A stretch of DNA of 63,692 bases, counting the filler, from Myxococcota bacterium (GTDB taxonomy: Bacteria > Myxococcota_C > UBA6777): assembly GCA_023150835.1 (NCBI GenBank). It is 3 parts of 3 records of this genome, joined end to end, with 100 filler letters (N's around TTAATTAATTAA, not from the genome) between each part and the next. Parts side by side here need not be neighbours in the genome. Positions count along the whole stretch, not along the records: positions 1 to 25,492 come from JAKLKB010000099.1; positions 25,593 to 51,070 come from JAKLKB010000100.1; 1 more part is not named here. The stretch is one strand, 5' to 3'. This document shows, in pieces, positions 6,838 to 38,207 of the stretch (position 1 is its first letter; each line of letters starts with the position of its first letter). The translations under genes were made by a program, and so were the position numbers. The notes beneath the pieces were generated by a model that was given only the letters and a program-made list of their open reading frames with translations, ran no database searches and was not told the DNA's origin.

Positions 6838-8862
6838 ATGGAAATGAGGCAACAAGTCGGAAAATGGAGCATTTTGTTTTTGGGCGTATTGTTTGGTTTT
6901 GTGGTGTCCTGTGGGGGAACGTCGAACTGCATCAACGGCATCCAGACGACGGATTACAACACCAGCGGCTTGCAATGCACCAAGTCTTGTGATTGCAGCA
7001 ACCTCAAATACGAAGGCTACTGCATCAACAGCACATGCGTTTCGACGGTGCGCAGTCCTGCCCAACGCAAGGGCGAGATCCGCTCTTGCAAGCTTTTGCA
7101 AAAAGTCGGTGCTTGTGAATGGGGCCAACAAGAAGCCCAGCCCGAGCCTTTGAAAGAACTGCTTTGGGGAAATTGTCTGCCGCCGACTATTGTCCCTGAA
7201 AACACAGCCGCTTTGTGTTCGGATGGCAAGGACAACGATTGTAACGGCACTGTCGACGATAAAGATCTCGGATGCAAAAGCTTTTGTGTTGAGGGCCGAA
7301 GTGAGCCTTGCTACCGTGGAGAAAAAGCCACTCTTAACCAAGGCAGTTGCCGCGCAGGTTTTCGAACCTGCCAACCGAATGGAGGTTGGGGAACTTGCGA
7401 GGGAGAAGTGGTTCCCAAAGCAGAAGTGTGCAACGCCCAAGATGACGACTGCAATGGGCTAATTGACGATGGTTTGGTGGGTTGTCACACCACGGAAAAA
7501 TGCCTTGAAGGCTCGCAAAAGCCTTGCTACACGGAACCGATGGGTTGCGTCTTGGAAACCCTGGCGGGTGGGGCAAAAGGCTTTCGGTGCGTGGGCGGTT
7601 GTCAGACGGGGACACAGCGTTGTGTGGGCGGATTATGGGGACTTTGCGAAGGAGCGGTCTCTCCAGCCGAAGAGCGTTGCGATGGCATCGACAACAACTG
7701 CGACGGAAAAGTTGATGAGATATGCGCTTGTCAAGCTGGCGAGCAACGCCTTTGTTTCTTGGGGCCACAAAACAAAGAAGTCGGCGTCTGCAAGGCAGGC
7801 ACACAACAATGCAAAGACGGTGTGTGGGGAGCGTGCGACGGGGCCGTCGCTCCAAGTCCTGAAACTTGCGATGGCCAAGACAACGATTGCGATGGCACGA
7901 TTGACGAAAGCTGCGGATGTACGGCGGGAACGTCGCGTGTGTGTTTTCTCGGTCCGCAACAGCGCGCTGTAGGAGAATGCACCGCAGGAAAACAGCATTG
8001 TGTCGCTGAAAAATGGGGTGTTTGTGATGGTGCAGGTAAGCCAAGTATCGAAGTATGCGATGGTTTAGACAATGATTGCGATGGAGTCGTTGATGAAGAC
8101 TGCGGATGCTCCACAGATGCCCAATGCCCGAACGGCATGCTTTGTTTTCGTGGTGTCTGCCAATCCCGTCCATTTGAAGAAACTGTCTCCGAGCCGATGC
8201 TGGAACCGACGCTCGACGCTGGCAACGAGCTGATGCTAGAACCGACGAGCGACGGCAGCAAAGAACCGACTCCTGAGCAAATCCCCGAAATCGCCCAAGA
8301 AGTCGTGCCAGAAACCATTGAAATCGTGAAAGAGATGGCTCCAGAAGCAATTCAAGAAGCGACACCCAGCCCCGGCCCGATGGCTTATGGCGAGAACTGC
8401 GCTCCCTCAAACGCAAACCAGCGTTGCCAAGCGGGTCTTATTTGCTTGACCTTTCCCAACGACACCATCGGCATCTGTTCGCGCCAATGCAACACCTCTT
8501 CTTGCCCCTCTGGTTCCCGCTGCGAAACCATCAACTCCACCACCGGCGACCGCGCTTGCTTTGTCAACTGCACCACAGTAGCTAACTGCCTTGCTGCTCA
8601 GCGTTGTGATTCTCGCATCAACGCTTGTTATCCAGATCCGAATCGGCGAGACTGTCGCCTTTCTGACCCTCTGGGTTCGTGTTCTTCGTATCGGGATTGT
8701 TGTGTTGGCCAGAATTGTTTGCTTGTGGGGGCTGGGCATTTTTGTGGGGCATGCTCAAAAGATTCAGACTGTCCAAAAATCGGGGGATTTGTTCCGACTT
8801 CTTGTTGTTCTCAAACGATCACAGGCCAAACGCAGCGCTTTTGCGCGACAACTTGCCCATGA
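6838..8862 (+). CDS. Cys-rich lipoprotein: shared N-terminal module, MopE-like ExCDGxDNDCDGxxDE repeats, EP-rich linker, Cys-rich C-terminus
   Basis: GAGAGG RBS before ATG 6838; lipobox FVVSC; four ExC(D/N)xxD(N/D)xCxGxxD repeats; N-terminal module shared with the RCC1 lipoproteins. Confidence 0.88.
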   Translation: MEMRQQVGKWSILFLGVLFGFVVSCGGTSNCINGIQTTDYNTSGLQCTKSCDCSNLKYEGYCINSTCVSTVRSPAQRKGEIRSCKLLQKVGACEWGQQEAQPEPLKELLWGNCLPPTIVPENTAALCSDGKDNDCNGTVDDKDLGCKSFCVEGRSEPCYRGEKATLNQGSCRAGFRTCQPNGGWGTCEGEVVPKAEVCNAQDDDCNGLIDDGLVGCHTTEKCLEGSQKPCYTEPMGCVLETLAGGAKGFRCVGGCQTGTQRCVGGLWGLCEGAVSPAEERCDGIDNNCDGKVDEICACQAGEQRLCFLGPQNKEVGVCKAGTQQCKDGVWGACDGAVAPSPETCDGQDNDCDGTIDESCGCTAGTSRVCFLGPQQRAVGECTAGKQHCVAEKWGVCDGAGKPSIEVCDGLDNDCDGVVDEDCGCSTDAQCPNGMLCFRGVCQSRPFEETVSEPMLEPTLDAGNELMLEPTSDGSKEPTPEQIPEIAQEVVPETIEIVKEMAPEAIQEATPSPGPMAYGENCAPSNANQRCQAGLICLTFPNDTIGICSRQCNTSSCPSGSRCETINSTTGDRACFVNCTTVANCLAAQRCDSRINACYPDPNRRDCRLSDPLGSCSSYRDCCVGQNCLLVGAGHFCGACSKDSDCPKIGGFVPTSCCSQTITGQTQRFCATTCP

Positions 8863-8879
8863 AGAGGCCACTCGTTCTT

Positions 8880-9004: not shown

Positions 9005-9694
9005 TCAGAAGTCCGAGGTTTTCGTGGTGTTCAGTTGTTCGATGATACAAAGCCATTCGTGGAAGTGTTGGCAACGTTGGCGGAGCTTTGCCAAACCAAT
9101 ACGAGCGACAACCGAGACTCCAGAAGTGGCTTTGTCATACTCAGAGATCTCTTTGATGATGCGCTTGGATGGGGCCGTTTCACGCCCGTCGTTGATTAGT
9201 TCGGGATTTTGATCGCCGATGCTGCGTGCGAGATTTGCGATGGCATCGTCATGTTCGAGATACTCCCAATCCAGATATTCCGGTGCAGCCAAGAGCAGCG
9301 TTTCAAATTCGTGCAGTTGGATGTAAGGCACAAACCGTTGGTCGTTGAGGTCGAGGGCAAAAGCCTCTTCAAGTGTTTTCACACGCAGATAAGGAGGAAA
9401 CATCTTTGTTTCTTGGTATTTGGGAAAATCGTCAGGAAGCGCGTACAGATCGAACATGGTCGTAAATCGGCACTCGTCGGCTTGATCTTCTTTCATCCAC
9501 GCTTCGATATCTTTCTTCGCTTTTTGATAACTGATGAGTCCGCCACGATACGTTTTCGCGGCCCGTTTGTCTTTGCTTGTGAGCACACATCGAGCATCCG
9601 CATACACATCAAAGCCCGCCAGATAGGGAGCAAGCACGATATCAACAAACGCTTTTTCCGTTTGCCCTTCTACTGTAACGTGCAAACGGATCAT
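9005..9694 (-). CDS. DUF4276-like (TOPRIM-fold) protein
   Basis: MIRLHVTVEGQTEKAF, TTMFDLYALP, YIQLHEFETLLL, PELIND..TAPSKRI, C.HF..W; start overlaps the ATPase stop (ATGA). Confidence 0.85.
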   Translation of the reverse strand: MIRLHVTVEGQTEKAFVDIVLAPYLAGFDVYADARCVLTSKDKRAAKTYRGGLISYQKAKKDIEAWMKEDQADECRFTTMFDLYALPDDFPKYQETKMFPPYLRVKTLEEAFALDLNDQRFVPYIQLHEFETLLLAAPEYLDWEYLEHDDAIANLARSIGDQNPELINDGRETAPSKRIIKEISEYDKATSGVSVVARIGLAKLRQRCQHFHEWLCIIEQLNTTKTSDF

Positions 9695-10803
9695 GGCTGT
9701 CCTCCAAGGACATTTTTCTCCCAAAGTTCGGAAAGGCTGTAATGTTGCAGCCATTCGTTCAGTTGGTTTGTGTCGAGCCTGCGAAACGTGCTGGTTCCTG
9801 AATGAGGATCTCGTTCGACGACGACGATGTCTTCCGATGAAAATTCATCGATCAATCGGGGGGATTGGGTGGCCGCGATGATCTGCGTGTGTTGCGATGC
9901 ACGTTTGATCAGACCGGCCAATTCAACGAGCGCTGCGGGATGCAAGCCTAATTCAGGTTCATCCAAGACGATCACTTTTGGGAAAAAGGCGGGTGGTTGT
10001 AGTAAGAGTGTGCTGAGCGCCATAAACCGCAACGAACCGTCCGATAACTGATCGGGTCCAAAGAGGTAATCAGGGCGAGCGCGATCCGTCCAATTCAAAC
10101 GAACGTACCGTTCATTCGTCGTTAGCGTATCCAGAACAAAATCATTGAGTTGGGGCATGATGCGTTGGATGTGGCTGACGATCCTTTTGTAGTATCGGTT
10201 GTAGGTGTCGCTTTCTTTGAGGACTTTTAAAAAAGCAGCCAGATTTCCTGCATCGCTGCGCAAAAAGGAAGCATCATCTACATAACAACGGCTCTTGATA
10301 CGCGCTGTATCCGAAGTATCGTGAAATTGAAACGTTTGAATACTTGCAAAAAAATCACGAAGCGCTTTGTTTTTTGGGTGCGTCTCTTGGCTTAAAGCGG
10401 CTTCTGAACTGCCCTCGCTCAACACCTCGGCTTGGGGGCTGGTGGTGCTAGGTTCAATGCGACGGACTGTTTCGGAACTTACAAACAAGCGCTCCAAGGC
10501 GGCGTAAGACAGACTTACACCGTAGTGGTCGGTGTGGGTTGCCTCTTCTACTGAAACGGAAAACTCCAGAGAGCCCGTCACTTTGGGTCCATAAAAAAGC
10601 AAGGTGTGAGCGCCTTGTTTGGCGGTATGTTGTTGTAAAGCACCGGTAGCAAGGGAAGCAAGAAGCCGAAAAAAAGAGACAATGTTGGTTTTTCCGCAGC
10701 CATTGGCTCCCAGCAAAAGAGTGATCTTGCCAAAAGAGATGTCCTGTCCGTTTTGGTTGTCGATGGATTTGAAACCCTTGAGGTGGATCTCTTTGAGTTG
10801 CAT
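9691..10803 (-). CDS. ABC/AAA_21-type ATPase
   Basis: Walker A GANGCGKTN, signature LSDGSLR, Walker B IVLDEPELGLHP, ATQSP, C-terminal LSELWEKNVLGGQP. Confidence 0.92.
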   Translation of the reverse strand: MQLKEIHLKGFKSIDNQNGQDISFGKITLLLGANGCGKTNIVSFFRLLASLATGALQQHTAKQGAHTLLFYGPKVTGSLEFSVSVEEATHTDHYGVSLSYAALERLFVSSETVRRIEPSTTSPQAEVLSEGSSEAALSQETHPKNKALRDFFASIQTFQFHDTSDTARIKSRCYVDDASFLRSDAGNLAAFLKVLKESDTYNRYYKRIVSHIQRIMPQLNDFVLDTLTTNERYVRLNWTDRARPDYLFGPDQLSDGSLRFMALSTLLLQPPAFFPKVIVLDEPELGLHPAALVELAGLIKRASQHTQIIAATQSPRLIDEFSSEDIVVVERDPHSGTSTFRRLDTNQLNEWLQHYSLSELWEKNVLGGQP

Positions 10804-10965
10804 CGAATGTTTTTCCTTTGCGGCGCGGGTTTGGTGACGTTTTGTGGGGACAACTTGCCTATGAAGAGCATCGTCCATTTTTGCAGACTTGGTGGGACAG
10901 ACAGGGCCCGTTGCATCCGCCACAACGGATGTTGTTTTATTTGGTGATAGGAGCGATTTGTGGCC

Positions 10966-15727: not shown

Positions 15728-17173
15728 ATGACTTCTTCGACAGAAACCATCCACGAATTAGCAAACCAAAAGTACAAGTACGGGTTTGTGACGGATATCG
15801 AAACTGACAGCGTTCCTGCCGGACTGAGCGAAGATATCATTCGTTTGATCTCCGCCAAAAAACAAGAACCCGAGTGGCTGTTGGAGTGGCGTTTGAAAGC
15901 CTACCGCCACTGGCGAACGATGGCCGAACCACGTTGGCCAAAGGTCGATTATCCAACGATCGACTTTGATCGGATCGTGTATTACTCCGCACCCAAACAA
16001 CGCCCAAAGCTCGATAGTTTGGACGAAGTCGATCCCGAGTTGTTGAAGACGTTTGAAAAGCTCGGTATCCCGCTTGAAGAGCAAAAGCGCCTGACAGGGG
16101 TCGCGGTCGATGTGGTGTTTGACAGCGTGTCGGTGGCGACTTCCTTCAAAGACAAGCTCGGTGAGTTGGGCGTGATCTTCTGTTCGATGTCCGAAGCTGT
16201 GCGCGAACATCCCGATCTTGTGCGCAAGTATCTCGGTACGGTGGTGCCTTACACCGACAATTTTTATGCTGCGCTGAACTCTGCGGTGTTTTCGGATGGC
16301 TCGTTTTGTTATATCCCCAAGGGCGTGCGTTGTCCGATGGAGCTTTCGACTTACTTTCGTATCAATGCCGCAGGGACGGGCCAGTTTGAACGAACTCTGT
16401 TGGTGGCCGAAGACAGCAGCTATGTGAGTTATCTCGAAGGATGTACCGCCCCACAGCGCGACGAAAACCAGCTTCATGCCGCAGTGGTCGAACTGATCGC
16501 GCTCGATAACGCGCAGATCAAATACTCGACCGTCCAAAACTGGTATCCGGGCGACGAACAAGGCAAAGGCGGTATCTACAACTTTGTCACCAAACGCGGT
16601 ATCTGCGCGGGTGTGAATTCCAAGATCTCATGGACACAAGTCGAAACAGGCTCGGCGATCACTTGGAAATATCCAAGCTGTATCCTCAAAGGCGACGGCT
16701 CTGTGGGCGAATTTTACTCCGTGGCTCTCACCAATCATTTTCAACAGGCCGATACTGGCACCAAGATGATCCACCTCGGCAAAAATACCAGCAGCACCAT
16801 CGTCTCCAAAGGTATCTCCGCAGGTAAGGGCCAAAACACGTATCGCGGTCTTGTGCGGATCGCCAAGTCCGCCACCCACGCCCGCAATTATACCCAGTGC
16901 GACTCGATGTTGATTGGTGATCGTTGTGGTGCGCACACCTTCCCGTATATCGAAGTCAATAACAATTCGTCGCAGGTCGAACACGAAGCCACCACCTCCA
17001 AGATCGGCGAAGAGCAGTTGTTTTATTGCCGTCAGCGCGGTCTTTCCGAAGAAGACGCGGTCTCGCTGATCGTCAACGGCTTTTGTAAAGAGGTGTTTCG
17101 CGAGCTTCCGATGGAGTTTGCGGTCGAAGCCCAAAAGCTCTTGGGGATTAGCCTCGAAGGCACCGTAGGTTGA
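15728..17173 (+). CDS. sufB: Fe-S cluster assembly scaffold SufB
   Basis: [70 protein letters not shown]. Confidence 0.98.
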
Positions 17174-17225
17174 GAGCTTGTCGTTGATTTTTCGGACGTG
17201 ATAAAAGACAAAGGAACAAAAGCGT

Positions 17226-19616: not shown

Positions 19617-19653
19617 TGTCTGTTTACGCCGTTCATCCGAAGGAGTTTGTGTG

Positions 19654-26744: not shown

Positions 26745-29700
26745 TCAAGGAAAGCGTACAGGTGTGGTAGGTGCCGTTCGATCAAGCGAATCGCCTGCCC
26801 CAAGCTGGCCTTCGTGGTTCCTGCCCCAGCACTTGACGGTGTGGTCATCGAGGATAGCGCAGGTGTGACTTTCTCCCAAGGAGACGGCTTTTACGGTACG
26901 CCCCGCGCCAAAAGCAACGGGAAGTGTGGGTGGGACGGTTCGTGACATCGTATCACCCAACCCAAGCTGGCCGTAGTAATTGAGTCCCCAGCACTTGAGA
27001 GAGCCGTTATCAAGGAGCGCGCAGGAGCGATTAGTTGCGACGAAAACGGCTGTTGCGGTGCGCCCCGCCCCGAGATCGACGGGGGTTGCGGGAGGGGCTA
27101 TCCGTTGCGTGGTGTCACCGTAGCCGAGTTCACCGTAGGTATTGTTGCCCCAACATTTGACTGTGCCGTTGTCGAGAAGCACACAAGTATGGCTGTATTC
27201 CAAGGCAAGGGCTTTTGCGGTACGTCCCGCCCCCAAATCGAGGGGGGTTATGGGTGGAGCGCGTCGCATTGTGGTGTCACCGTAGCCGAGTTCACCAAAG
27301 GTATTGCTGCCCCAACATTTAACCGAAGCATCGTCAAGGATCGCGCAGGAATGGGATTTTCCTAACACCAAGGTTTTTGCGGTGCGCCCGCTGCCCAGAT
27401 CGACGGTGATTGTAGGCGGAGCGGTTCGGTTCACGACATCGTTGTAGCCGAGTTGACCGTAAGTGTTGCGGCCCCAACACTTGATCGAATCATTGTCAAG
27501 GATCGCACAAGCATGCGTTCCTCCCAAAGCAAGAGCTTTTGCGGTGCGACCCGTCCCGAGTTCGATGGGGTTGGCGGGAGGAGCGTTTCGATCGATGGTG
27601 TCGCTGTAGCCGAGTTGACCCACGTTATTGCGGCCCCAACACTTGAGGGTGTCGTTGTCGAGGATCGCGCAGGTGTAATAGTCGCCGACATCAAGGGCTT
27701 TTGCGGTGCGGCCTACGCCGATATCCACGACACCTGTAGGTGGGGAGGGTCGAGATACGGTATCACCGTAGCCAAGTTGACCGTACACATTCTGGCCCCA
27801 ACATCGGACTTGGCCGTTTTGGAGAGAGCAGTTGTGATACGCTCCAGACTTCAAAGCCATAAGGGGAGACGTGCAACGGAACAAACCGCATATCTGGCCG
27901 CTTGCGCAGGCGATGTTGCATCCGCCACAATGCGCGGCGGAAAAAGTATCCACACAAGTTCCGCTGCACGTGGTTTGACCGAGCGCAATCGATTCGCTTG
28001 TCACTTTACTGCGCATGGCAAAATCGCCGTAGCCGAGCTTTCCTTTGGTGTTGTCGCCAAAACAAACAGTGCGTTGGTTGTCCAAGACAGCGCAGGTGTG
28101 GGTCATGCCAACAGAAAGAGTCTTGGCGGTGCGAGCCAGACCGAAGTCCAAAGGGGCGGAGGGAGGGGCGGGTAGGTCTTTGTCTTGGCCGCTCTCGCCA
28201 TTTCCAAGTTGCCCTGCATCGTTTGCGCCCCAACAGCGGGCGGTTCCATCGTCAAGCAAAGCGCATCGATGCGAGCCAAGGCCCGAGAACAAGGCGTGGG
28301 CGGTACGACCCGCTCCAAAAGCCACAAGCTCGGCAGGGGGTTTGTTTCGGTCGGTGGTGTCGCCGTAGCCAAGCTGTCCTCGGCTGTTGTCGCCCCAACA
28401 CTTGACGGAACGATCATCCAAAAAGACGCAAACATCGGCACGACCGACGCTAAGGGATTTGACGCTGCGGCCTGCACCGACGTCGACGGGTTGAAGGTGG
28501 GGAGCGCTTCGAGGCACCTGATCGCCGAGACCGAGTTGGCCTTTGTCGTTTTTTCCCCAGCATTTGACGGTGTCGTTGTCGAGCAAGGCGCAAGTAAAAG
28601 CATCTCCCGCCCCCACCGCTTTGACACTGCGCCCGATCCCCACATCCACCGCCTTGGCATCGGGCGAAAGGCGCGAAGCCGAGTCCCCGTACCCAAGCTG
28701 GCCGTGCGCATTGGCTCCCCAACAGCGGAGGCTTGCATCATTCAACACAGCACAGGTGTGGGTCACTCCCGTCGCCGCCCCAACCACCAAACGCCCCACT
28801 CCCAAGTCCACCCCCCAAAAGATCGGCTTTTCGATATCGGTCAGGTTGCCATACCCCAACTGCCCGTAAGAATTCTTGCCCCAACAAGAAAGCCCTTGAT
28901 CAAAGGCCAACACACAGGTATGCGACTCTCCAAGCCAGATCTGCTTGGCTCGCTTTTCTGCACCCTGACCGATCACAAGTGTTTCGCTTGGAGGCAGAGC
29001 ATACAAAGCTTTATCTGCGTAGCCCAAAGGAGCGCTGTCACCATCCCCCCAACATTTGAGTTGACCACAAGCCGTAATCGCGCAAGTGTGCGAAACGCCC
29101 GCGACGACCGATAACAGCGAAGTACACCCCCCCGACACACAGATCTCGCCGACAGCACACGCCTTGCCGCACCCGCCACAATGGGCGGCGGAAGACAGCG
29201 TATCGACACAGCTTCCGTCGCAACGGGGATGCGTGGGTTTGCAATCGCACTTGCCCGAAGAGCATTGCTCGCTGAATGGAGCGCAAGGTCGGTTGCATCC
29301 ACCGCAATGCTTGGGGTCCGCAGCAACATCCACGCAGACACCTCCGCAGATCCCCGAAGCATCGCGGCATTTGCACTCGCCTCCCTCGCAACGCTCGTAA
29401 GGTGGGCAGGTTTTGCCGCATCTACCGCAATGTTTGTCGTCCGTCAAAAGATCCACGCAATCGTTGCCACAAACAGCGTAGCCTTGTTTGCAAGCACACT
29501 GCCCTCCCGAGCATTGCTTGCGCTCACCACAAGGATTCGCACATCTTCCGCAATGTAGGTTGTTGGTGGCGGTATCCACACAAACGCTGTTGCACTCGAT
29601 CTGCCCGTCGCTGCAACGACATTGACCGCCTCGACACAAGTTGCCTCCGCTGCAAGCCACATCACAGCGACCACAATGTTTGGGATTTGTTTGGGCGTCG

Positions 29701-30461
29701 ACACATTGACGGCCACAGCGTAGCTGCGCCGAAGGGCATACGATCTCCTTGCAGCTTGCGGCCTCACAGCGCCACCCATCGACGCAATCCTCATCTTTCA
29801 AGCATCCGCATTCTTCGTCGGTTTGGCCGTTGCAGTTGTTGTCTAAGCCATCGCAGAGTTCTTTTTGAGGCAGGATCTCGCCCGTACAGGCCCCCCATGT
29901 CGAATCCGCCCCACAGCTTCGGCTTCCTGCGCGGCAGATGCCGATGCCCAAGGTATGGAGCGTTCCCGTGTAGCAATTTTGGGTACGTCCCGCGACACAA
30001 AAAGGCGCACAGTCGGGATCTTCGAGATCGGTGCGACCATCACAATCGTTGTCTTGGCTGTCTGTGCAGGCTGTTGCAGTATTTTCGGGGGTGGGCGTGG
30101 GAGGGATGCAATCGCCCCAAACAAGCTCGGTCAAAGGCTCGGGTTGGGCTTCTTGTTGACCCCATTCACAAGCAGCGACTTTTTGCAACAGTTTGCATTG
30201 TTGGATCTCGCCCTTGCGTTGGGCTGCACGGCGTTGGGTCGAGACGCACGTCCCCGATACGCAGTAGCCCTCATACTTGAGGTTGCTGCAATCACAAGGC
30301 TTTTTACATTGGAGACCGCTGGTGTTGTAGTCGGCGATCTGGATACCGTTTTTGCACTCACCGCCGCCTCCGCAAGAAGCCATGCCCACCACAAAACACA
30401 AGGCCAACAAGCTTCCTCCCAACCAGCGCACCGCAAACAGCTTGACTCTCAACCAACGCAT
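26745..30461 (-). CDS. Lipoprotein: shared N-module, Cys-rich CVDxxxDxxHCGxC repeats, two RCC1-repeat blocks (paralog 1)
   Basis: Lipobox GMASC; many HTCA..CWGxNxxGQLG repeats; start ATG 30461 inferred because the longer ORF crosses a repeat element. Confidence 0.93.
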   Translation of the reverse strand: MRWLRVKLFAVRWLGGSLLALCFVVGMASCGGGGECKNGIQIADYNTSGLQCKKPCDCSNLKYEGYCVSGTCVSTQRRAAQRKGEIQQCKLLQKVAACEWGQQEAQPEPLTELVWGDCIPPTPTPENTATACTDSQDNDCDGRTDLEDPDCAPFCVAGRTQNCYTGTLHTLGIGICRAGSRSCGADSTWGACTGEILPQKELCDGLDNNCNGQTDEECGCLKDEDCVDGWRCEAASCKEIVCPSAQLRCGRQCVDAQTNPKHCGRCDVACSGGNLCRGGQCRCSDGQIECNSVCVDTATNNLHCGRCANPCGERKQCSGGQCACKQGYAVCGNDCVDLLTDDKHCGRCGKTCPPYERCEGGECKCRDASGICGGVCVDVAADPKHCGGCNRPCAPFSEQCSSGKCDCKPTHPRCDGSCVDTLSSAAHCGGCGKACAVGEICVSGGCTSLLSVVAGVSHTCAITACGQLKCWGDGDSAPLGYADKALYALPPSETLVIGQGAEKRAKQIWLGESHTCVLAFDQGLSCWGKNSYGQLGYGNLTDIEKPIFWGVDLGVGRLVVGAATGVTHTCAVLNDASLRCWGANAHGQLGYGDSASRLSPDAKAVDVGIGRSVKAVGAGDAFTCALLDNDTVKCWGKNDKGQLGLGDQVPRSAPHLQPVDVGAGRSVKSLSVGRADVCVFLDDRSVKCWGDNSRGQLGYGDTTDRNKPPAELVAFGAGRTAHALFSGLGSHRCALLDDGTARCWGANDAGQLGNGESGQDKDLPAPPSAPLDFGLARTAKTLSVGMTHTCAVLDNQRTVCFGDNTKGKLGYGDFAMRSKVTSESIALGQTTCSGTCVDTFSAAHCGGCNIACASGQICGLFRCTSPLMALKSGAYHNCSLQNGQVRCWGQNVYGQLGYGDTVSRPSPPTGVVDIGVGRTAKALDVGDYYTCAILDNDTLKCWGRNNVGQLGYSDTIDRNAPPANPIELGTGRTAKALALGGTHACAILDNDSIKCWGRNTYGQLGYNDVVNRTAPPTITVDLGSGRTAKTLVLGKSHSCAILDDASVKCWGSNTFGELGYGDTTMRRAPPITPLDLGAGRTAKALALEYSHTCVLLDNGTVKCWGNNTYGELGYGDTTQRIAPPATPVDLGAGRTATAVFVATNRSCALLDNGSLKCWGLNYYGQLGLGDTMSRTVPPTLPVAFGAGRTVKAVSLGESHTCAILDDHTVKCWGRNHEGQLGAGDSLDRTAPTTPVRFP

Positions 30462-30632: not shown

Positions 30633-33600
30633 TCAAGGAAAAGGCAACGGATCGAAGTCGGGCGCGCTGCGGTAGATCGTGTCGCCATAACCGAGCTGTC
30701 CGTGAGGGTTGACTCCCCAACATTTGAGGGAATGGTTGTCGAGGATCACACAAGCGTAAGATTTCCCGACGTCAAGGGCTTTTGCGGTGCGACCCGCACC
30801 AAGATCAACAGGGTTGGCGGGGGGAGCGGTTCGGTTGATGATATCGCCGTAGCCGAGCTCTCCATTCGCGTTGGCTCCCCAGCATTTGACGGTATCGTTA
30901 CGGAGGATCGCGCAAGCGAAGTGCTTGCCCACGGCAAGCGTTTTCGCCGTCTGCCCCCCGCCGAGATTGATCGGGTTGATGGAGGGAGAGGTCCGGTTTG
31001 TGGTGTCGCCGTAGCCGAGTTGGCCCGAAGTGTTGCTCCCCCAACATTTGACGGTATCGTTGTCGAGGATCGCACAAGAGGATGTATCCCAGAAAGCAAG
31101 GGCCTTTGCGGTGCGACCCGTCCCGAGATCCACAGGATTGGCGGGGGGAAAGGTTCGGATTGTGGTGTCGCCGTAGCCGAGTTGGCCCGAAGTGTTGCTC
31201 CCCCAACATTTGAGGGTGTCGTTGTCAAGGATCGCGCAAGTGTAGTTTTGCCCCAAAGCAAGGGCTTTGGCGGTACGGCCCACGCCCAGATCGACGGGGG
31301 TTGGGGGGGGGGAGTTTCGCTGGATGGTATCGCCGTAGCCAAGCTGTCCGAAGAGATTCCATCCCCAACACTTGAGAGTATCGTTGTCGAGGATCGCGCA
31401 GGAGTGAGAGGCTCCCAAGGCAAGGGCTTTTGCGGTGCGCCCAGCGCCGAGATCGACGGGGGTCGAGGGGGGAGATTTTCGCGAAATGGCGTCAGCCAAG
31501 CCAAGCTGCCCGTCAGAGTTGCCCCCCCAACATTTGAGCGTATCGTTGTCGAGGATCGCGCAGGAGTGAGAGGCTCCCAAGGCAAGGGCTTTCGCGGTGC
31601 GGCCCGCGCCAAGATCTACAAAGGCGGTCGGCGGGGCCGTTCGGCTTGTGATGTCGCCGTAGCCAAGCACACCGTCACCGTTCCACCCCCAACACCGAAG
31701 TTGGCCGCTTTGTAAAGAACAAGAGTGTTCGTTCCCCAAAGCGACTGCCGTCACTCCAAGAACACAACGCCCGACGTTGCACATCTGGTTGGCTGCACAA
31801 GCAGCGCTACACCCGCCACAATGATCGGGCGAAGCCAAGATATCAACACAAGCGCCGCCACAGATCGCCTGCCCCAAAGCGATCGGATCGCTGGGTTTGA
31901 TGCGCGAGTTCGTGTCGCCATATCCGAGCTTTCCACCCCCACCATCCCCCCAACAGACGGTGCGTTGGTTGTCCAAGACAGCGCAAGTGTGGTTCATACC
32001 GACAGAAAGAGCTTTTGCGGTGCGACCCATACCGAAGTCCAAAGCAACGGAAGGAGGGGCGGACTGGTCTTTGCCTTGGCCGCTTTCACCGTTGCCAAGC
32101 TGCCCTGTATCATTTGCCCCCCAACAGCGGGCAGTTCCATCATCAAGCAAAGCACAGCGGTGTGAGCCAAAGCCCGAGAACAAGGAATGGACGGTGCGGC
32201 CTGCTCCAAAAGTCACAAGCCCAGCAGGGGGCTTGTTTCGATCGGTGGTATCGCCGTAGCCAAGCTGTCCTCGGCGGTTGTCACCCCAGCACTTGACGGA
32301 GCGATCATCCAACAAGACGCAGACATCGGCACGACCGACGCTAAGGGATTTGGCGCTGCGCCCTACACCGACGTCGACGGGTTGAAGGTTGGGAGCGTTT
32401 CGAGAGACCTGATCGCCAAGACCGAGTTGGCCTTTGTCGTTGTTTCCCCAGCATTTGACGGTGTCGTTATCAAGCAAGGCACAAGTGAAAGCATCTCCCG
32501 CACCCACAGATTTGACACTGCGCCCGATCCCCACATCCACCGCCTTGGTATCCGGCGAAAGTCGCGAAATTGCATCGCCATAGCCAAGCTGGCCTTTGTC
32601 GTTTCCGCCCCAGCAACGCAGGCTTGCGTCATCCAAGATCGCGCAAGTGTGGTTGACACCAACGACCACTTGAGTTGCATAACGACCCACCCCCATCCCC
32701 ACACCCGACAGGCTCGGAGCCGCAAGAGCGATCGTGTTTCCGTATCCTAACTGCCCGACTTGGTTTTCTCCCCAGCAATGCACACGAGAATCCACCAACG
32801 CACAGGAATGTTTTTCCCCAAGCACCACTTGTCGGACGAGTTCCACACCAGATGCGCCAAAAACGAGCGACCGCCCGCTTGGAGAAAAGCGGATCCGACC
32901 ATCCCCATAACCAAGCGCAACACGATTTCCATACCCCCAACATTTGAGTCGCCCGCAAACCGTGACAGCACATGTATGGGAAACACCCGCAACGATCGAC
33001 AACAGCGGATTGCAAACGCCCGCTTTGCAAGCTTCGCCCACAGCACAAGCCTTGCCACATCCGCCACAATGGGCCGTAGAAGACTGCGTATCGACACAGC
33101 TTCCGTCGCAGCGGGGATGCGTGGACTTGCAATCGCACTTGCCCGAAGAGCATTGCTCGCTGAACGGAGCGCAAGGTCGGTTGCATCCGCCACAATGCTT
33201 GGGGTCCGCAGCGATATCCACGCAGACGCCCTCGCAGATCCCCGAAGCATCGCGACATTTGCACACGCCTCCCTCGCAACGCTCGTAATGTGGGCAAGCT
33301 TTGCCGCAGGTTCCGCAATGTTTGTCGTCCGTCAAAAGATCCACGCAATCGTTGCCGCAAACGGAGTCGCCTTGTTTGCACAAGCATTGCCCTCCCGAAC
33401 ATTGCTTGCGCTCACCACAAGGATTCGTGCATTTTCCGCAGTGCAGGTTGTTGGTGGCGGTATCCACACAAGCGCTGTCGCACTCGCTCTGCCCATCGCT
33501 GCAACGGCATTGACCACCTCGACACAAGTTCCCTCCGCTACAAGCCACACCACAGCGACCGCAATGTTTGGGATCGGTTTGCGGATCGACGCATTGACGA

Positions 33601-34325
33601 CCACAGCGCAGTTGTGCCGAAGGGCATACGATCTCCTTACAGCTTGCGCCGGCCTCACAGCGCCAACCCTCGACGCAATCCTCGTCTTTCGAGCATCCGC
33701 ATCCTTCGTCCGTTTGGCCGTTGCAGTTGTTGTCCAAACCGTCGCAAAGCTCTTTTTGAGGCAGGATCTCGCCCGTACAGGGTCCCCACATCGAATCAGC
33801 CCCACAGCTTCGACTCCCTGCGCGACATACGCCGATGCCCGACGTGCTGGGCGTTCCTGTGTAGCAATCTTCGGAGCGCCCAGCGGAACAGAAGGGCGCA
33901 CAGTCGGGATCTTCGAGGTCGGTGCGACCATCACAATCGTTGTCTTGGCTGTCTGTACAGGCTTTTACCGTATTTTCGGGAGTGGGCGTGGGAGGGATGC
34001 AATCGCCCCAAACAAGCTCGGTCAGAGGCTCGGGTTGGGCTTCTTGTTGACCCCATTCGCAAGCGCCGACTTTTTGCAACAGTTTGCATCGTCGGATCTC
34101 GCCCTTGCGTTGGGCAGGAAGGCGTTGGGTCGAGACGCACGTCCCCGACACGCAGTAGCCCTCATACTTGAGGTTGCTGCAATCACAAGGCTTTTTACAT
34201 TGGAGACCGCTGGTGTTGTAATCGGCAAGCTGGATGCCGTTTTTGCACTCGCCTCCGCCTCCACAAGAAGCCATGCCCACCACAAAACACAAGGCCAACA
34301 AGCCCCCTCCCAACCAACGCATCAT
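30633..34325 (-). CDS. RCC1-repeat Cys-rich lipoprotein (paralog 2)
   Basis: Same architecture; MMRWLGGGLLALCFVVGMASC. Confidence 0.93.
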   Translation of the reverse strand: MMRWLGGGLLALCFVVGMASCGGGGECKNGIQLADYNTSGLQCKKPCDCSNLKYEGYCVSGTCVSTQRLPAQRKGEIRRCKLLQKVGACEWGQQEAQPEPLTELVWGDCIPPTPTPENTVKACTDSQDNDCDGRTDLEDPDCAPFCSAGRSEDCYTGTPSTSGIGVCRAGSRSCGADSMWGPCTGEILPQKELCDGLDNNCNGQTDEGCGCSKDEDCVEGWRCEAGASCKEIVCPSAQLRCGRQCVDPQTDPKHCGRCGVACSGGNLCRGGQCRCSDGQSECDSACVDTATNNLHCGKCTNPCGERKQCSGGQCLCKQGDSVCGNDCVDLLTDDKHCGTCGKACPHYERCEGGVCKCRDASGICEGVCVDIAADPKHCGGCNRPCAPFSEQCSSGKCDCKSTHPRCDGSCVDTQSSTAHCGGCGKACAVGEACKAGVCNPLLSIVAGVSHTCAVTVCGRLKCWGYGNRVALGYGDGRIRFSPSGRSLVFGASGVELVRQVVLGEKHSCALVDSRVHCWGENQVGQLGYGNTIALAAPSLSGVGMGVGRYATQVVVGVNHTCAILDDASLRCWGGNDKGQLGYGDAISRLSPDTKAVDVGIGRSVKSVGAGDAFTCALLDNDTVKCWGNNDKGQLGLGDQVSRNAPNLQPVDVGVGRSAKSLSVGRADVCVLLDDRSVKCWGDNRRGQLGYGDTTDRNKPPAGLVTFGAGRTVHSLFSGFGSHRCALLDDGTARCWGANDTGQLGNGESGQGKDQSAPPSVALDFGMGRTAKALSVGMNHTCAVLDNQRTVCWGDGGGGKLGYGDTNSRIKPSDPIALGQAICGGACVDILASPDHCGGCSAACAANQMCNVGRCVLGVTAVALGNEHSCSLQSGQLRCWGWNGDGVLGYGDITSRTAPPTAFVDLGAGRTAKALALGASHSCAILDNDTLKCWGGNSDGQLGLADAISRKSPPSTPVDLGAGRTAKALALGASHSCAILDNDTLKCWGWNLFGQLGYGDTIQRNSPPPTPVDLGVGRTAKALALGQNYTCAILDNDTLKCWGSNTSGQLGYGDTTIRTFPPANPVDLGTGRTAKALAFWDTSSCAILDNDTVKCWGSNTSGQLGYGDTTNRTSPSINPINLGGGQTAKTLAVGKHFACAILRNDTVKCWGANANGELGYGDIINRTAPPANPVDLGAGRTAKALDVGKSYACVILDNHSLKCWGVNPHGQLGYGDTIYRSAPDFDPLPFP

Positions 34326-34457: not shown

Positions 34458-37400
34458 TCAAGGAAAGCGCACAGGATGGTGTTCGGGAGCAGATCGCGGC
34501 AGGACATCGCCCATCCCAAGCTGCCCCTCGGCATTGCGGCCCCAACAGCGCATCGAATGATCTTGCAAGATCACGCAAGCATGGTGGCTTCCAAGCGAGA
34601 GGCGTTCAGGCCGAACACCGACCCCCAAGTCGATCGAGGTCGCAGGGGGTGCGTTGCGGGTGGTCAAGTCGCCATAGCCAAGTTGTCCGTAAGCGTTGTT
34701 GCCCCAACACTTGAGAGCGTCGTTATCGAGAATCGCGCAACCGAAGCTGTGTCCCACCGCAAGGGCTTTTGCGGTGCGCCCGACACCGAGATCAACGGGG
34801 GTTGATGGGGGAGCGTTTCGGCTCGTGGTGTCGCCGTAGCCGAGCTGGCCTTCTATATTTGCTCCCCAACACTTGACGGTGTCGTTGTCGAGGAGCGCAC
34901 AAGTGTATTCGCTGCCCAAAGCAAGGGCTTTTGCAGTGCGACCTGCCCCGAGATCGACGGCAGTCGTAGGCGGAGAGGTTCGTTGGGTCGTATCGCCGTA
35001 GCCGAGTTGGCCAACAGCGTTGCGGCCCCAACATTTGACGGAGGAATCGTCAAGGATCGCACAAGAGTGTGAACCTCCCAAGGCAAGGGCTTTGGCGGTA
35101 CGGCCCACGCCAAGATCGACGGTGGTTGGGGGGGGAGAAGTTCGAGTTGTGGTGTCGCCATAGCCAAGCTGCCCAAAAGTGTTCCATCCCCAGCACTTGA
35201 GCGTGTCGTTGTCGAGGAGCGCGCAGGTGTGGGAGGCTCCCAAGGCAAGGGCTTTTACAGTACGCCCGACACCGAGATCGACGGGGGTTGAGGGGGGAGT
35301 GTTTCGGTTTGTGGTGTCAGCCAAACCAAGCTGCCCGTAAGAGTTGCCCCCCCAACATTTGAGCGTGTCGTTGTCGAGGAGCGCGCAGGTGTGGGAGGCT
35401 CCCAAGGCAAGGGCTTTTGCGGTGCGGCCCGCGCCCAGATCGATGGGCGTGGTGGCAGCAAAAAAGCGCGAAGTGTGATCGCCATAACCGAGTTGACCGA
35501 CGTTGTTGTATCCCCAACACTTGATCTGCCCTGCTTGAAGAGAACAGGTATGACCCGCTCCAGAGGCGAAAGCGTCCATTTGAGGGATGCAGCGGCTGCC
35601 GTTGCAGCCTTGGTTTGCGGCACAAACGACGTTGCATCCGCCACAATGCGCGATAGAAAAAGTGTCCACACAAGCTCCGCCGCAGACTGTTTGGCCCAGC
35701 ACGATCGACTCCTCCGTCACTTTGTTGCGCGGGATCTCATCACCATATCCGAGCTTTCCACCGCGCCCATCCCCCCAACAAACGGTGCGTTGGTTGTCCA
35801 AGACAGCGCAAGTGTGGTTCATGCCGACAGAAAGAGTCTTTGCGGTGCGACCCATACCGAAGTCCAAAGCAGCGGAAGCAGGGGCGAGTTGGTCTTTGTC
35901 TTGGCCGCTCTCGCCGTTTCCAAGCTGCCCTGTATCGTTTGCGCCCCAACAGCGGGTAGTTCCATCGTCAAGCAAAGCGCAGCGGTGCGAGCCAAGGCCC
36001 GAAAACAAGAAGTGGGCAGTACGACCCGCCCCAAAAGCTACAAGCTCGGCAGGAGGCTTGTTTCGGTCGGTGGTGTCGCCGTAGCCAAGCTGTCCTCGGC
36101 TGTTGTCGCCCCAACACTTGACGGAACGATCGTCCAACAAGACGCAGACATCGGCGCGACCGACGCTGAGGGACTTGACGCTGCGTCCTGCACCGACATC
36201 AAGAGGCCGAAGTTCTGGCGCGTTTCGAGGCATCTGATCACCGAGACCTAGCTGGCCCTTGTCGTTGTTTCCCCAGCATTTGACGGTGTCGTTGTCGAGC
36301 AAGACACAAGTGAAAGCGTCTCCCACCCCCACAGATTTGACACCGAGTCCGATCCCCATATCGATGGCGATCTTTGGGGGCGCGAAGCGCCAAGTCGCAT
36401 CGCCGTACCCGAGCTGGCCGTTGTCATTGGCCCCCCAACAACGGAGGCTTGCGTCATCCAACACCGCGCAAGTATGTTTGGAACCGACAGCCACTTGGAC
36501 AGCGAAACGACTGGCTCCAAAGTCCACCGCGATCCCGCTCGCGGCGAGAAGCGGTTTGACATCCCCATAACCCAATTGCCCGTCGTGGTTGGCCCCCCAA
36601 CAGTACAAACGCCTGTCCACCAACAAAGCACAAGCATGCGTTCGACCGATCGCGATCTGTCGAACTTGTCGTTGTTTGCCTTGGCCGATGGCGCTCACCT
36701 CCATCAAAGCAAAACGGCGGATGCCTTGCTCTCCGTAACCAAGCGAGCTTTCAGAACCATCCCCCCAACATTTCAGCCGCCCACAGGCCGTGATCGCGCA
36801 AGTGGACGAAACACCCGCAACAACCGACACCAGCGAAGCGCAAACGCCCTCTTCGCAAGCCTCGCCAACAACACACGCCTTGCCGCACCCACCACAATGA
36901 TCAACAGACGATCTTGTGTCCGTACATTTTCCATCACAACGGAGATGGGCGGGCTTGCAATCGCACTTGCCCGAAGAACATCGCTCGCTGAACAGATCAC
37001 AAGTCTTATTGCATCCGCCACAATGCTTGGGATCCGCAGCGATATCCACACAAACGCCCTCGCAGCTCCCCGAAGCATCGCGGCATTTGCACACGCCCCC
37101 TTCGCAACGCTCGTAATGTGGGCAAGCTTTGCCGCAGGTTCCGCAATGTTTGTCGTCCGTCAAAAGCTCCACACAATCGTTGCCACAAACAGCATAGCCT
37201 TGTTTACAAGCACATTGATATCCCGAGCATTGCTTGCGCTCACCACAAGGATTCGTGCATCTTCCGCAGTGTAGGTTGTTGGTGGCGGTATCCACACAAA
37301 CGCTGTTGCACTCGATCTGCCCATCGCTGCAACGGCATTGACCACCTCGGCACAGGTTCCCTCCGCTACAAGCCACACCACAGCGACCGCAATGTTTGGG

Positions 37401-38207
37401 ATCGGTTTGCGGATCGACGCATTGACGGCCACAGCGTAGCTGCGCCGAAGGGCATACGATCTCCTTGCAGCTTGCGGCCTCACAGCGCCACCCATCGACG
37501 CAATCCTCATCTTTCAAGCATCCGCATTCTTCGTCGGTTTGGCCGTTGCAGTTGTTGTCCAAACCATCGCAGAGCTCTTTTTGAGGCAAGATCTCACCTG
37601 TACAGGCCCCCCATGTCGAATCTGCCCCACAGTTTCGGCTGCCTGCGCGGCACACGCCGACGCCCAAGGTATCGAGCGTCCCCGTGTAGCAGGTTTGATT
37701 CAGTCCCGCGACACAAAAAGGCGCACAGTCGGGATCTTCGAGATCGGTGCGGCCATCGCAATCGTTGTCTTGGCTGTCTGTGCAGGCTGTTGCAGTATTT
37801 TCGGGAGTGGGCGTGGGAGGAATGCAATCGCCCCAAACCAGTTCGGTCAGAGGCTCGGGTTGGGCTTCTTGTTGACCCCATTCGCAAGCGCCGACTTTTT
37901 GCAACAACTTGCAACGTTGGATATCGCCCTTGCGCCGGGCTAGAACACGAGGGTTGGAGACGCACGTCCCCAACACACAGTAGCCCTCGAACTTGAGGTT
38001 GCTGCAATCACAACCAACTGTGCATTTGAGTCCGCTGGTATTGTAGTCGACGAGTTGGATGCCGTTTTTGCACTCGCCACCGCCCCCACAAGAAGCCGTG
38101 CCCACCGCAAAACACACAGCCAACAAGCTCCCCCCCAACCAGCGCATTGTAGACAACAAAGCCGCGACGGCGCCCACCCAACCCACGTTCCATTCCAGCC
38201 AGCGCAT
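34458..38207 (-). CDS. RCC1-repeat Cys-rich lipoprotein (paralog 3)
   Basis: Same architecture; lipobox GTASC; start ATG 38207 or 38147. Confidence 0.93.
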   Translation of the reverse strand: MRWLEWNVGWVGAVAALLSTMRWLGGSLLAVCFAVGTASCGGGGECKNGIQLVDYNTSGLKCTVGCDCSNLKFEGYCVLGTCVSNPRVLARRKGDIQRCKLLQKVGACEWGQQEAQPEPLTELVWGDCIPPTPTPENTATACTDSQDNDCDGRTDLEDPDCAPFCVAGLNQTCYTGTLDTLGVGVCRAGSRNCGADSTWGACTGEILPQKELCDGLDNNCNGQTDEECGCLKDEDCVDGWRCEAASCKEIVCPSAQLRCGRQCVDPQTDPKHCGRCGVACSGGNLCRGGQCRCSDGQIECNSVCVDTATNNLHCGRCTNPCGERKQCSGYQCACKQGYAVCGNDCVELLTDDKHCGTCGKACPHYERCEGGVCKCRDASGSCEGVCVDIAADPKHCGGCNKTCDLFSERCSSGKCDCKPAHLRCDGKCTDTRSSVDHCGGCGKACVVGEACEEGVCASLVSVVAGVSSTCAITACGRLKCWGDGSESSLGYGEQGIRRFALMEVSAIGQGKQRQVRQIAIGRTHACALLVDRRLYCWGANHDGQLGYGDVKPLLAASGIAVDFGASRFAVQVAVGSKHTCAVLDDASLRCWGANDNGQLGYGDATWRFAPPKIAIDMGIGLGVKSVGVGDAFTCVLLDNDTVKCWGNNDKGQLGLGDQMPRNAPELRPLDVGAGRSVKSLSVGRADVCVLLDDRSVKCWGDNSRGQLGYGDTTDRNKPPAELVAFGAGRTAHFLFSGLGSHRCALLDDGTTRCWGANDTGQLGNGESGQDKDQLAPASAALDFGMGRTAKTLSVGMNHTCAVLDNQRTVCWGDGRGGKLGYGDEIPRNKVTEESIVLGQTVCGGACVDTFSIAHCGGCNVVCAANQGCNGSRCIPQMDAFASGAGHTCSLQAGQIKCWGYNNVGQLGYGDHTSRFFAATTPIDLGAGRTAKALALGASHTCALLDNDTLKCWGGNSYGQLGLADTTNRNTPPSTPVDLGVGRTVKALALGASHTCALLDNDTLKCWGWNTFGQLGYGDTTTRTSPPPTTVDLGVGRTAKALALGGSHSCAILDDSSVKCWGRNAVGQLGYGDTTQRTSPPTTAVDLGAGRTAKALALGSEYTCALLDNDTVKCWGANIEGQLGYGDTTSRNAPPSTPVDLGVGRTAKALAVGHSFGCAILDNDALKCWGNNAYGQLGYGDLTTRNAPPATSIDLGVGVRPERLSLGSHHACVILQDHSMRCWGRNAEGQLGMGDVLPRSAPEHHPVRFP

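Follow-up and report, generated by a model that had tools for sequence, protein, structure and literature searches.

Lipoprotein genes in the analysed window (the whole stretch of 63,692 nucleotides) share a Cys-rich N-terminal module, behind which the cargo domains differ between genes in the window and, more widely, across a family of 129 cluster representatives. The best explanation, which taken as a whole we hold with about even confidence, is that the module represents a previously undescribed, disulfide-rich domain of ~95 residues, predicted to be autonomous and two-lobed, that would form a cargo-independent membrane base, and that the family grew through duplication in tandem and recurrent exchange of cargo within a small, uncultured, Myxococcota-like phylum. 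The domain, its position, its distribution and the diversity of its cargo are observed; judging from position and conservation, a cargo-independent base next to the membrane would most likely be its role.

Module genes in the window

Translation and alignment agree with the initial annotation, which had described five lipoprotein starts with the same Cys-rich module, four of them in complete genes and one in a fragment. In all five copies a hydrophobic leader and a lipobox Cys are followed by CGG..C.NGIQ..DYNTSGL.C...CDCSNLK(Y/F)EGYC, and in the four complete genes the sequence continues as RKG(E/D)I..CKLLQKV(G/A)ACEWGQQEAQPEPL.EL.WG.C.PP. The fragment, which had been called partial, does contain the module start; its incompleteness is due to the contig end, and the stretch present is free of stop codons and frameshifts. 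The features of the window discussed here are as follows.

1808-3709, minus strand: receptor-type Ser/Thr kinase, Pfam kinase domain at residues 15-274
3758-5218, minus strand: second F3 paralogue
5237-6532, minus strand: conserved neighbour F3; leader, long helical region and two hydrophobic segments in the translation, without Pfam family
6838-6909, plus strand: signal peptide and lipobox of gene 6838-8862, ending ..FVVS before the Cys, whose codon starts at 6910 (translation, alignment)
6910-7197, plus strand: N-terminal Cys-rich module of gene 6838-8862, 96 aa; row 1 in alignments A2 and A3 and the input for structure prediction
7198-8862, plus strand: cargo of gene 6838 (translation, Pfam)
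7285-8094, plus strand: MopE-type Cys repeat units in the cargo of gene 6838, followed by a Glu/Pro-rich linker
8410-8859, plus strand: Cys-rich C-terminal domain of gene 6838, without Pfam family
25493-25592, no strand: assembly joint between contigs 1 and 2, consisting of an N run, TTAATTAATTAA and an N run (sequence inspection); the window's own proteins are recorded on contigs of 25492 and 25478 nucleotides
25595-25804, minus strand: 5' part of the fifth module gene, with leader and first ~50 module residues, ending at the contig end; P0023 in the profile search
26745-30461, minus strand: RCC1 lipoprotein paralogue 1 with the module at 30084-30374, followed by a single MopE unit, Stig1 repeats and a pair of RCC1 propellers
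30633-34325, minus strand: RCC1 lipoprotein paralogue 2, module at 33975-34265
34458-38207, minus strand: RCC1 lipoprotein paralogue 3, module at 37800-38090
51071-51170: second assembly joint (sequence inspection)

The aligned N-termini are 54-60% identical to that of gene 6838, with 31 columns invariant over the five copies, and the module alone (~96 residues) is 72-79% identical. The similarity reached E values of 1e-38 to 1e-58 in a search against 5.8 billion clusters, far above chance level. Between gene 6838 and the RCC1 genes, the alignment extends ~100 residues beyond the module, through the first MopE unit. The cargo had also been described correctly: according to translation and Pfam matches, gene 6838 has MopE motifs (PF11617) and then a linker rich in Glu and Pro before its Cys-rich C-terminus, and each of the three other genes combines a single MopE unit with Stig1-type Cys repeats and a pair of RCC1 propellers. 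Identity among these three tandem paralogues is 72-98% up to alignment column 480; it is 39-62% over the 120 columns that follow, where the first propeller begins, and 50-83% in the second propeller. The true start of paralogue 3 may be the second Met, ~20 codons downstream. Three contigs are concatenated in the window, separated by N runs with the TTAATTAATTAA linker, and gene 6838 and the RCC1 array thus lie on different contigs and need not be neighbours. Copy number for the source organism was taken from the window together with near-identical NCBI proteins on longer contigs.

Fold, lobes and cysteines

An AlphaFold model based on 61 sequences (pLDDT 87.3, pTM 0.73) has two lobes and two beta hairpins; a model from a 9-row alignment (pLDDT 45.7) was set aside. 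Lobe 1 covers approximately residues 7-50, its signature reading C[DE]CNNQ.YEG.C across the wide family and CDCSNLKYEGYC in the window, and lobe 2 approximately residues 51-96, ending in WG[DN]C. Columns C7, C23, C27, C29, G36, C38, C43 and R48 are invariant and N31 is nearly so. Profile-profile comparison of the module with the Cys repeat that precedes MopE motifs gave an hhalign probability of 94.4% (E 8.8e-8), matching module columns 53-91 to repeat columns 4-42 of alignment A4, which was built here. Lobe 2 is, as judged by this profile match, the first copy of the generic Cys repeat in diverged form and so not new in kind, whereas lobe 1 has no counterpart in the Cys repeats, is unique to this family and is the best conserved part of the module.

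Among 163 unique modules, Cys51 and Cys76 are both present in 142 and both absent in 19, including the window's clade; a single one of the two occurs in 2. An extra Cys91 is found in 58 of the 59 modules that do not continue into a MopE motif, where it closes the domain, and 91 of the 104 modules without Cys91 lead straight into a MopE motif. About a third of the modules are self-contained and followed by a linker instead of a stalk. A Cys51-Cys76 pair is predicted for the wide family, as is a bridge from one module Cys to the initial Cys of the MopE motif or, in modules lacking such a motif, to Cys91.

Searches for a described relative were negative. Neither Pfam nor NCBIfam covers the module, the matches of the window proteins (PF11617, NF041328) all lying behind it; when 61 module segments were scanned alone, no family matched more than 4 members, with best E values of 0.0042 (Pfam) and 0.058 (NCBIfam). 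The PDB sequence search returned one chance match (E 2.5) and none with the wider profile, neither Foldseek against the PDB nor VIA-align against 48,161 chains rose above noise, and the ESM Atlas contained no usable match to the module. Literature searches returned no description of it. In these sources the module therefore belongs to no characterised family, as had been surmised.

Family, position and lipoprotein character

The global distribution was assessed by searching 1.84 billion proteins with the module profile. This search matched 129 cluster representatives, nearly all with the module directly behind the leader: in 125 the best match begins no later than about residue 120, and 4 carry 2-3 internal copies each, so that the N-terminal place is not strict. 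Leader and lipobox calls were made by script and pattern; on this basis a hydrophobic leader ending in Cys is present in 112 of 129 representatives (relaxed hydropathy test), 92 of 129 having the strict lipobox pattern. The 17 representatives that fail the relaxed test comprise the 4 with internal copies, 8 in which a leader Cys can be recognised by eye and 5 that are truncated or leaderless. By leader and lipobox, the module proteins are thus predicted bacterial lipoproteins, i.e. substrates of signal peptidase II. Counted from the leader Cys, the C.C motif follows after a gap of 25-27 residues in 66 of the 112 leader-positive representatives; for 24 more the script gave 20, where it apparently took the second Cys.

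The residue at +2 is S, G or T in 74 of the 112, K in 4 and D in 2. In M. xanthus, Lys at +2 is given as the mark of inner-membrane lipoproteins in the available text of PMC3222651. By the +2 rule of other bacteria, a rule from another phylum, most members would leave the inner membrane.

The module occurs in all five genomes of one small phylum (7, 4, 4, 5 and 44 matches), the 44 copies residing in a single 10.8-Mb genome, and tandem arrays of module genes are common in the genomes of the phylum and in the fetched loci. A narrow scan of genome contigs with two peptide patterns found only the closest species and one 18-residue match in an Acidobacteriota MAG; the latter was disregarded, and the two patterns are too narrow to show absence elsewhere. 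The initial annotation spoke of a predatory lineage, for which there is no basis here, the organism being an uncultured MAG.

Cargo diversity

The cargo of 120 scanned representatives consists of NHL (24), WD40 (13), FGE-sulfatase (7), SBBP only (6), LamG (2), RCC1 (1), Stig1 only (1), MopE only (27) or low-complexity sequence only (1), and 38 have no match. No toxin family is among the Pfam matches listed for these 120. Cargo class changes 21 times on the module tree, compared with a mean of 24.0 in 300 shuffles, an almost random spread that may partly reflect weak resolution, since the tree is built from 89 columns; a control trait from outside the tree columns needed 17 changes where shuffling gave 33.3, and 0 of 300 shuffles reached so low a number. 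An exchange can also be seen at an orthologous locus of a related MAG, where 73% identity over residues 1-361 is followed by RCC1 cargo replacing the Cys-rich C-terminus. The proposal of a constant N-terminal piece with swappable C-terminal domains is thus borne out by the family of 129 representatives: it contains at least six cargo classes, spread almost at random on the module tree, and extends well beyond recent duplicates. The same cargo types and Cys-rich stalks are also found in lipoproteins that lack the module (P0166, P0167; families F2 and F5), and the module is therefore dispensable for making such proteins. A teneurin-like identity was considered for the NHL-cargo proteins and rejected: the available text of 10.1101/2025.11.11.687626 gives an FN-plug and a YD shell as required, and these family names are absent among the Pfam matches listed for the representatives.

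Neighbouring genes

In the translation of 1808-3709, the kinase domain is followed by a hydrophobic segment, then a linker rich in Pro and, at the C-terminus, a Cys-rich domain of ~110 aa. The F3 gene at 5237-6532 is divergent to gene 6838. Besides the window, three of the five genomes have a cassette of a receptor Ser/Thr kinase with conserved Cys-rich ectodomain, F3 and at least one module gene, rearranged in order and orientation. No genome showed more than one kinase-F3 cassette, most module genes having no adjacent kinase; in 51 fetched loci, 10 Ser/Thr kinases (10 loci) and 6 histidine kinases (5 loci) lie within three genes of a module gene. The proteins of 3758 and 5237 are conserved neighbours of one module locus only, and across the window and the 51 loci there is neither a neighbour gene common to the whole family nor a transporter or barrel gene recurring beside module genes. 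Slam (PF04575) matched in none of the five genomes, a search to which 14 control genomes were equally silent. Co-folding of the module with the kinase ectodomain gave a score of 0.00, which, obtained without controls, speaks neither for nor against binding.

Comparison with known systems

The closest parallel in organisation are the SitA toxins of Myxococcus, described in the available text of PMC8546572 as lipoproteins with a conserved N-terminal escort domain and exchanged modular C-terminal domains. In both cases a conserved N-terminal domain defines the family and several paralogues occur per genome in Myxococcota. However, as far as that description goes, the SitA escort domain has ~375 aa and follows a disordered stretch, whereas the module is disulfide-rich, has ~95 aa and begins 5-6 residues past the Cys; SitA cargo consists of polymorphic nucleases accompanied by immunity genes, that of the module of propellers, FGE-sulfatase and LamG. 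Membership in the escort-domain family was rejected on these differences in length, start and cargo, a separation made by description, not by sequence.

MopE (PF11617) and the MXAN_6577-like Cys-rich family (NF041328) are directly relevant, as the regions immediately behind the module belong to both and lobe 2 shares homology with the repeat preceding the MopE motif, in the hairpin part of that repeat; yet both models leave the module uncovered, and the repeats are multiple whereas the module is present as a single N-terminal unit. Knottin or toxin-like peptides (8f2f, 8sem, 5fzv) superpose weakly on lobe 1, and the hairpins of fibronectin type I modules (1qgb, 3ejh, 2cg6) weakly on lobe 2, in both cases within noise.

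Among lipoprotein sorting signals, that of Bacteroidota export is a short peptide, and Slam-dependent Neisseria lipoproteins have C-terminal barrel domains. The +2/+7 rules of M. xanthus ascribe sorting to residues near the mature N-terminus (PMC3222651, available text). The point of likeness is that where a lipoprotein ends up depends on information in or close to its mature N-terminus; those signals, however, are short motifs or, for Slam, C-terminal barrels, whereas the module is predicted to be a folded N-terminal domain.

Possible role of the module

The module would constitute the mature N-terminus of the lipoproteins, starting 5-6 residues past the lipidated Cys, and would lead into the variable cargo domain through a stalk that is rigid and Cys-rich or through a flexible linker. 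Its job may be independent of the cargo: it would act as a rigid base against the membrane that holds and orients the stalk, possibly also as a common docking surface, and the distal propeller or enzyme domain would do the specific binding. In the absence of a family-wide neighbour gene, a docking partner is without support.

It is also conceivable, at a clearly lower probability, that the module has no function of its own and is the first diverged stalk unit plus an N-terminal cap, both derived from one ancestral lipoprotein. Conservation would then come from an intolerant disulfide framework and cargo diversity from ordinary C-terminal shuffling in a fast-duplicating family. The homology of lobe 2 to the generic repeat, the module-less lipoproteins with the same stalk and cargo, the common tandem arrays and the family's restriction to a narrow lineage (129 of 1.84 billion representatives; a single species genome with the two peptide patterns) would all fit. 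Lobe 1, however, is absent from the repeats and yet best conserved, it is hard to see without selection how 125 of 129 representatives keep the module at the N-terminus when all that follows is exchanged, and the self-contained third of modules leads into a linker, not a stalk. The cargo-independent membrane base stays our preferred reading.

The export, docking or surface-display role put forward in the initial annotation would be a candidate one, neither a universal neighbouring gene nor a partner having been found. In its strongest form, which we consider improbable, the module would be a sorting or export handle by which a dedicated, putative machine moves the repertoire to the cell surface. 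The constant place at the mature N-terminus, where sorting information resides elsewhere (PMC3222651, available text), the up to 44 paralogues in one genome, the binding-type cargo domains and the +2 residues, mostly neither Lys nor Asp, point in this direction, but no transporter or barrel gene recurs in the window and the 51 loci, the sorting signals named above are short peptides or C-terminal domains rather than folded 95-residue domains, and with at least five disulfides, presumably formed on folding in the periplasm, the module would have to cross the outer membrane already folded. Equally improbable is the related idea of a lineage-specific display system, in which a putative envelope component would recognise the folded module and place or dock up to 44 lipoproteins per genome; their heads would be different propellers, lectin-like or enzyme domains, and the kinase-F3 cassette might be one possible read-out. 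That the module proteins are envelope sensors signalling to membrane kinases, in the way of NlpE with CpxA or RcsF with IgaA, the module contacting the kinase ectodomain, appears very unlikely: the kinase-F3-module cassette has been retained in three of the five genomes as well as in the window, and further loci have Ser/Thr or histidine kinases within three genes, but no genome showed more than one cassette, most module genes have no kinase alongside, the kinases near module genes may match the genome background, kinase counts being high in Myxococcota, and the cassette may be mere synteny of related genomes.

Implications

A constant N-terminal piece with exchangeable heads is already known from the myxobacterial SitA toxins; the module is unrelated to these in length and shape, and the domains it carries are of the binding rather than the toxic type. 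Its family, annotated as 'hypothetical' in all sources examined, accounts for a noticeable part of the envelope proteome in a phylum about which little is known, and the module profile (alignment A3) would allow annotators to name these proteins. Should the module be a structural cap only, it would still offer a clean natural case of repeated domain exchange on a fixed anchor. If it directs localisation or docking, it would represent a new principle of lipoprotein sorting as well as a compact surface-display tag, and if the display system is real, lipoproteins would be sorted or arrayed by a folded domain instead of a short peptide signal.

The N-terminal module and its genes

Translation and N-terminal alignment confirm that four long ORFs and a short one share the same start, as the initial annotation had proposed. 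The relevant features are:

6838-8862 (+), gene 6838
25595-25804 (-), partial copy
26745-30461 (-), RCC1 gene
30633-34325 (-), RCC1 gene
34458-38207 (-), RCC1 gene
25493-25592, joint of contigs 1 and 2, N runs around a TTAATTAATTAA linker
51071-51170, joint of contigs 2 and 3, N runs around a TTAATTAATTAA linker

Each of the five translations starts with a hydrophobic leader that leads to a lipobox-position Cys; CGG..C.NGIQ..DYNTSGL.C...CDCSNLK(Y/F)EGYC follows in every aligned copy, and after it, in the four complete genes, RKG(E/D)I..CKLLQKV(G/A)ACEWGQQEAQPEPL.EL.WG.C.PP. Over the module proper (96–97 residues), gene 6838 shares 72–79% identity with the three RCC1 genes. It had been delimited as a unit of about 100 residues; the module is indeed shared, but in the alignment gene 6838 and the RCC1 genes remain similar beyond it, through the first MopE unit. 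All Pfam and NCBIfam matches in the four complete genes are C-terminal to the module: MopE motifs (PF11617) in all four, and Stig1/MXAN_6577-like Cys repeats with RCC1 propellers in the three large ones. Gene 6838 ends instead in a Glu/Pro-rich linker and a Cys-rich domain without any family. The window joins three contigs (1-25492, 25593-51070 and 51171-63692), so adjacency across the joints is meaningless; given the N-run joints with their linker, gene 6838 and the RCC1 array come from separate contigs. A contig edge ends the partial copy, which is free of stops and frameshifts in the stretch present.

Several other loci were observed in the window. Just downstream of gene 6838, a DUF4276 protein and an AAA_21 ATPase (9005-10923, -) match the PADLOC candidate defence system HEC-01 (HEC-01B, E 4e-75; HEC-01A, E 1e-121). 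An ordinary SUF iron-sulfur assembly cluster (15728-23300, +; SufB, SufC, SufD, a SufS-type aminotransferase and a FeS_assembly_P protein), with BipA and Sua5 close by, gives contig 1 a housekeeping context. A 1390-aa protein (40417-44589, +) downstream of the RCC1 array consists almost entirely of WD40 repeats (20 stretches matched to the WD40 model); the window-wide module motif scan found no module in it.

Family extent and novelty

A word-indexed search with the module as sole query reached only 11 proteins, three of them the window's own, and already included FGE-sulfatase as a new cargo (P0016, P0017). A profile search of the kind suggested in the initial annotation, run with a nine-module profile against 1.84 billion cluster representatives, returned 129 proteins at E ≤ 0.001 (21 at E ≤ 1e-10, seven at E ≤ 1e-30). 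The segments printed share a wider signature, C-x5-C ... [DN]P[ND]G..C...C[DE]CNNQ.YEG.C..G.C.S..R..C...G....C........C..G.Q.CQP..L....WGDC. In 125 of the 129 representatives the best module match begins within the first ~120 residues. The four exceptions (P0024, P0065, P0074 and P0077) use the domain differently, as a repeat: each has two or three internal copies, which stand in tandem in the C-terminal half of a protein that matches no Pfam family. A Cys-terminated leader precedes the module in 112/129 by a relaxed script test and in 92/129 by a strict lipobox pattern; the 17 failing the relaxed test comprise the four internal-copy proteins, eight with a leader visible by eye and five truncated or leaderless. 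Among the 20 of 129 looked up, source names were 'hypothetical protein' and, in one case, 'WD40 repeat protein'; the MAGs of origin carry the labels Myxococcales, Deltaproteobacteria or Myxococcota bacterium.

A peptide-pattern genome scan got no further than a single species, hitting four loci in a Myxococcota MAG; a 61-row profile gave seven matches in that genome. All five available genomes of its phylum have the module, often in tandem (7, 4, 4, 5 and 44 matches); the 44 matches, in the 10.8-Mb genome G005, represent a large lineage-specific expansion.

When 61 module segments were scanned singly, no Pfam or NCBIfam family matched more than four members (best E 0.0042 and 0.058, respectively). 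A PDB sequence-profile search gave no match, an ESM Atlas search no usable match, and a full-text literature search found nothing on the module, which we therefore treat as undescribed. Thus, the initial view of the module as an unrecognised family held against Pfam, NCBIfam, PDB profiles and ESM Atlas; as judged by these resources, it is a new, uncatalogued lipoprotein domain family. However, when 34 generic Cys repeat units of these proteins were aligned, module columns 53–91 matched columns 4–42 of that alignment (profile-profile probability 94.4%, E 8.8e-8). Lobe 2 (residues ~51–96) is therefore the first stalk repeat in diverged form, and what is truly new is lobe 1 (~7–50). Modular lipoproteins with a family-defining N-terminal domain are a known theme, the closest case being the SitA escort domains (PMC8546572).

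Cysteine pattern

Of 163 unique modules, 142 have both Cys51 and Cys76, 19 have neither and two have just one of them; the window's clade, among the 19, carries Ala in place of each. This paired behaviour argues for a disulfide between them whose two Cys were lost together. That leaves an odd number of invariant Cys, one of which seems to pair with a partner outside the module. Modules without Cys91 lead directly into a MopE motif in 91 of 104 cases, whereas 58 of the 59 with the extra Cys91 (WGDC.C) lack a directly following one, the printed examples continuing into low-complexity, linker-like sequence. Modules are thus finished in two ways, stalk-fused or self-closed on a tether. The Cys distribution supports a real, closed domain.

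Cargo exchange

The cargo scan covered 120 representatives (63 at E ≤ 1e-5 and 57 at E ≤ 1e-8).

Cargo classes, representatives out of 120
NHL propellers: 24
WD40: 13
FGE-sulfatase: 7
SBBP repeats only: 6
Laminin_G_3: 2
RCC1: 1
Stig1 only: 1
MopE motifs only: 27
Low complexity only: 1
No family: 38

Of the remaining nine representatives, four are short; precomputed domains of the other five give RCC1 (P0010), FGE-sulfatase (P0016, P0017), PF11617 only (P0014) and none (P0008).

A maximum-likelihood tree (IQ-TREE quick) was built from 103 near-full-length modules and 89 columns. Whether a MopE motif follows is a trait external to these columns; it requires 17 changes versus a shuffle mean of 33.3 (0/300 as low), and thus the tree carries real signal. 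By contrast, cargo class requires 21 changes over 49 labelled tips versus 24.0 shuffled (11/300 as low), and NHL versus WD40 seven versus 7.9, values close to shuffled that indicate many exchanges of cargo relative to the module, read on a short alignment and with close paralogues collapsed in the 50%-identity library. Gene 6838 and its orthologue in a related MAG, which has the same upstream gene, are a direct case: the two are 73% identical over residues 1–361, beyond which the orthologue has Stig1 repeats and RCC1 blades where gene 6838 has its EP linker and Cys-rich terminus. The module-free lipoproteins P0166, P0167 and P0168 in turn contain halves of this Cys-rich terminus. Within the tandem array, identity is 72–98% across leader, module and stalk (alignment columns 1–480), 39–62% over the next 120 (start of the first propeller) and 50–83% in the second propeller; the divergence is located in the heads. 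The initial interpretation is thus borne out in part: its constant module with exchangeable cargo has strong support, and its export, docking or display role is a candidate one.

Genomic neighbourhood

Crude ORF calls were clustered across 51 loci around module genes in the five genomes. No gene family adjoins most of their 64 module ORFs. A cassette of a kinase, F3 and one to three module genes is conserved in the window and in the genomes G001, G002 and G004, although its genes vary in order and orientation:

1808-6532 (-), kinase and F3 genes of the cassette in the window
3758-5218 (-), F3 protein
5237-6532 (-), F3 protein

The two F3 proteins, which the initial annotation had proposed to co-fold with the module, belong to this cassette locus and not to the whole module family. 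The kinase is a receptor-type Ser/Thr kinase whose kinase domain is assigned by Pfam. Its translation continues with a hydrophobic segment and a Pro-rich linker, and then a conserved Cys-rich ectodomain of ~110 aa without a Pfam match. F3, present in one or two copies of 400–486 aa, matches no Pfam family; its translation reads as a leader and a long helical stretch plus two hydrophobic segments, and it looks like a helical two-segment membrane protein. Kinase ectodomain and F3 may be undescribed families in their own right.

Possible role of the module

That the module is a real domain we regard as very probable. It is closed and conserved and starts 5–6 residues past the Cys of the predicted lipid anchor; whatever lies behind it can be exchanged, and one small lineage shows a strong expansion of the family. 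Since the module is kept in place while the cargo changes, its role would be independent of the cargo. Most simply, the module would be a rigid base resting against the membrane and bearing the stalk or tether that projects the specific head, and this base might also serve as a common contact surface; for this reading as a whole we see about an even chance.

A cap with no function of its own, retained by ancestry and disulfide constraints, we consider rather unlikely. Coupling of the module proteins to the kinase as a sensor has the recurrent cassette on its side and the many module genes with no adjacent kinase against it, and is very improbable. The module as a true sorting or export handle fits its place behind the lipid anchor and appears distinctly unlikely. 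The +2 residue is S, G or T in 74/112, K in four and D in two, which, provided that the M. xanthus or E. coli rules can be extrapolated (PMC3222651), would argue against inner-membrane retention. If the module does direct localisation, the family would be of higher interest.
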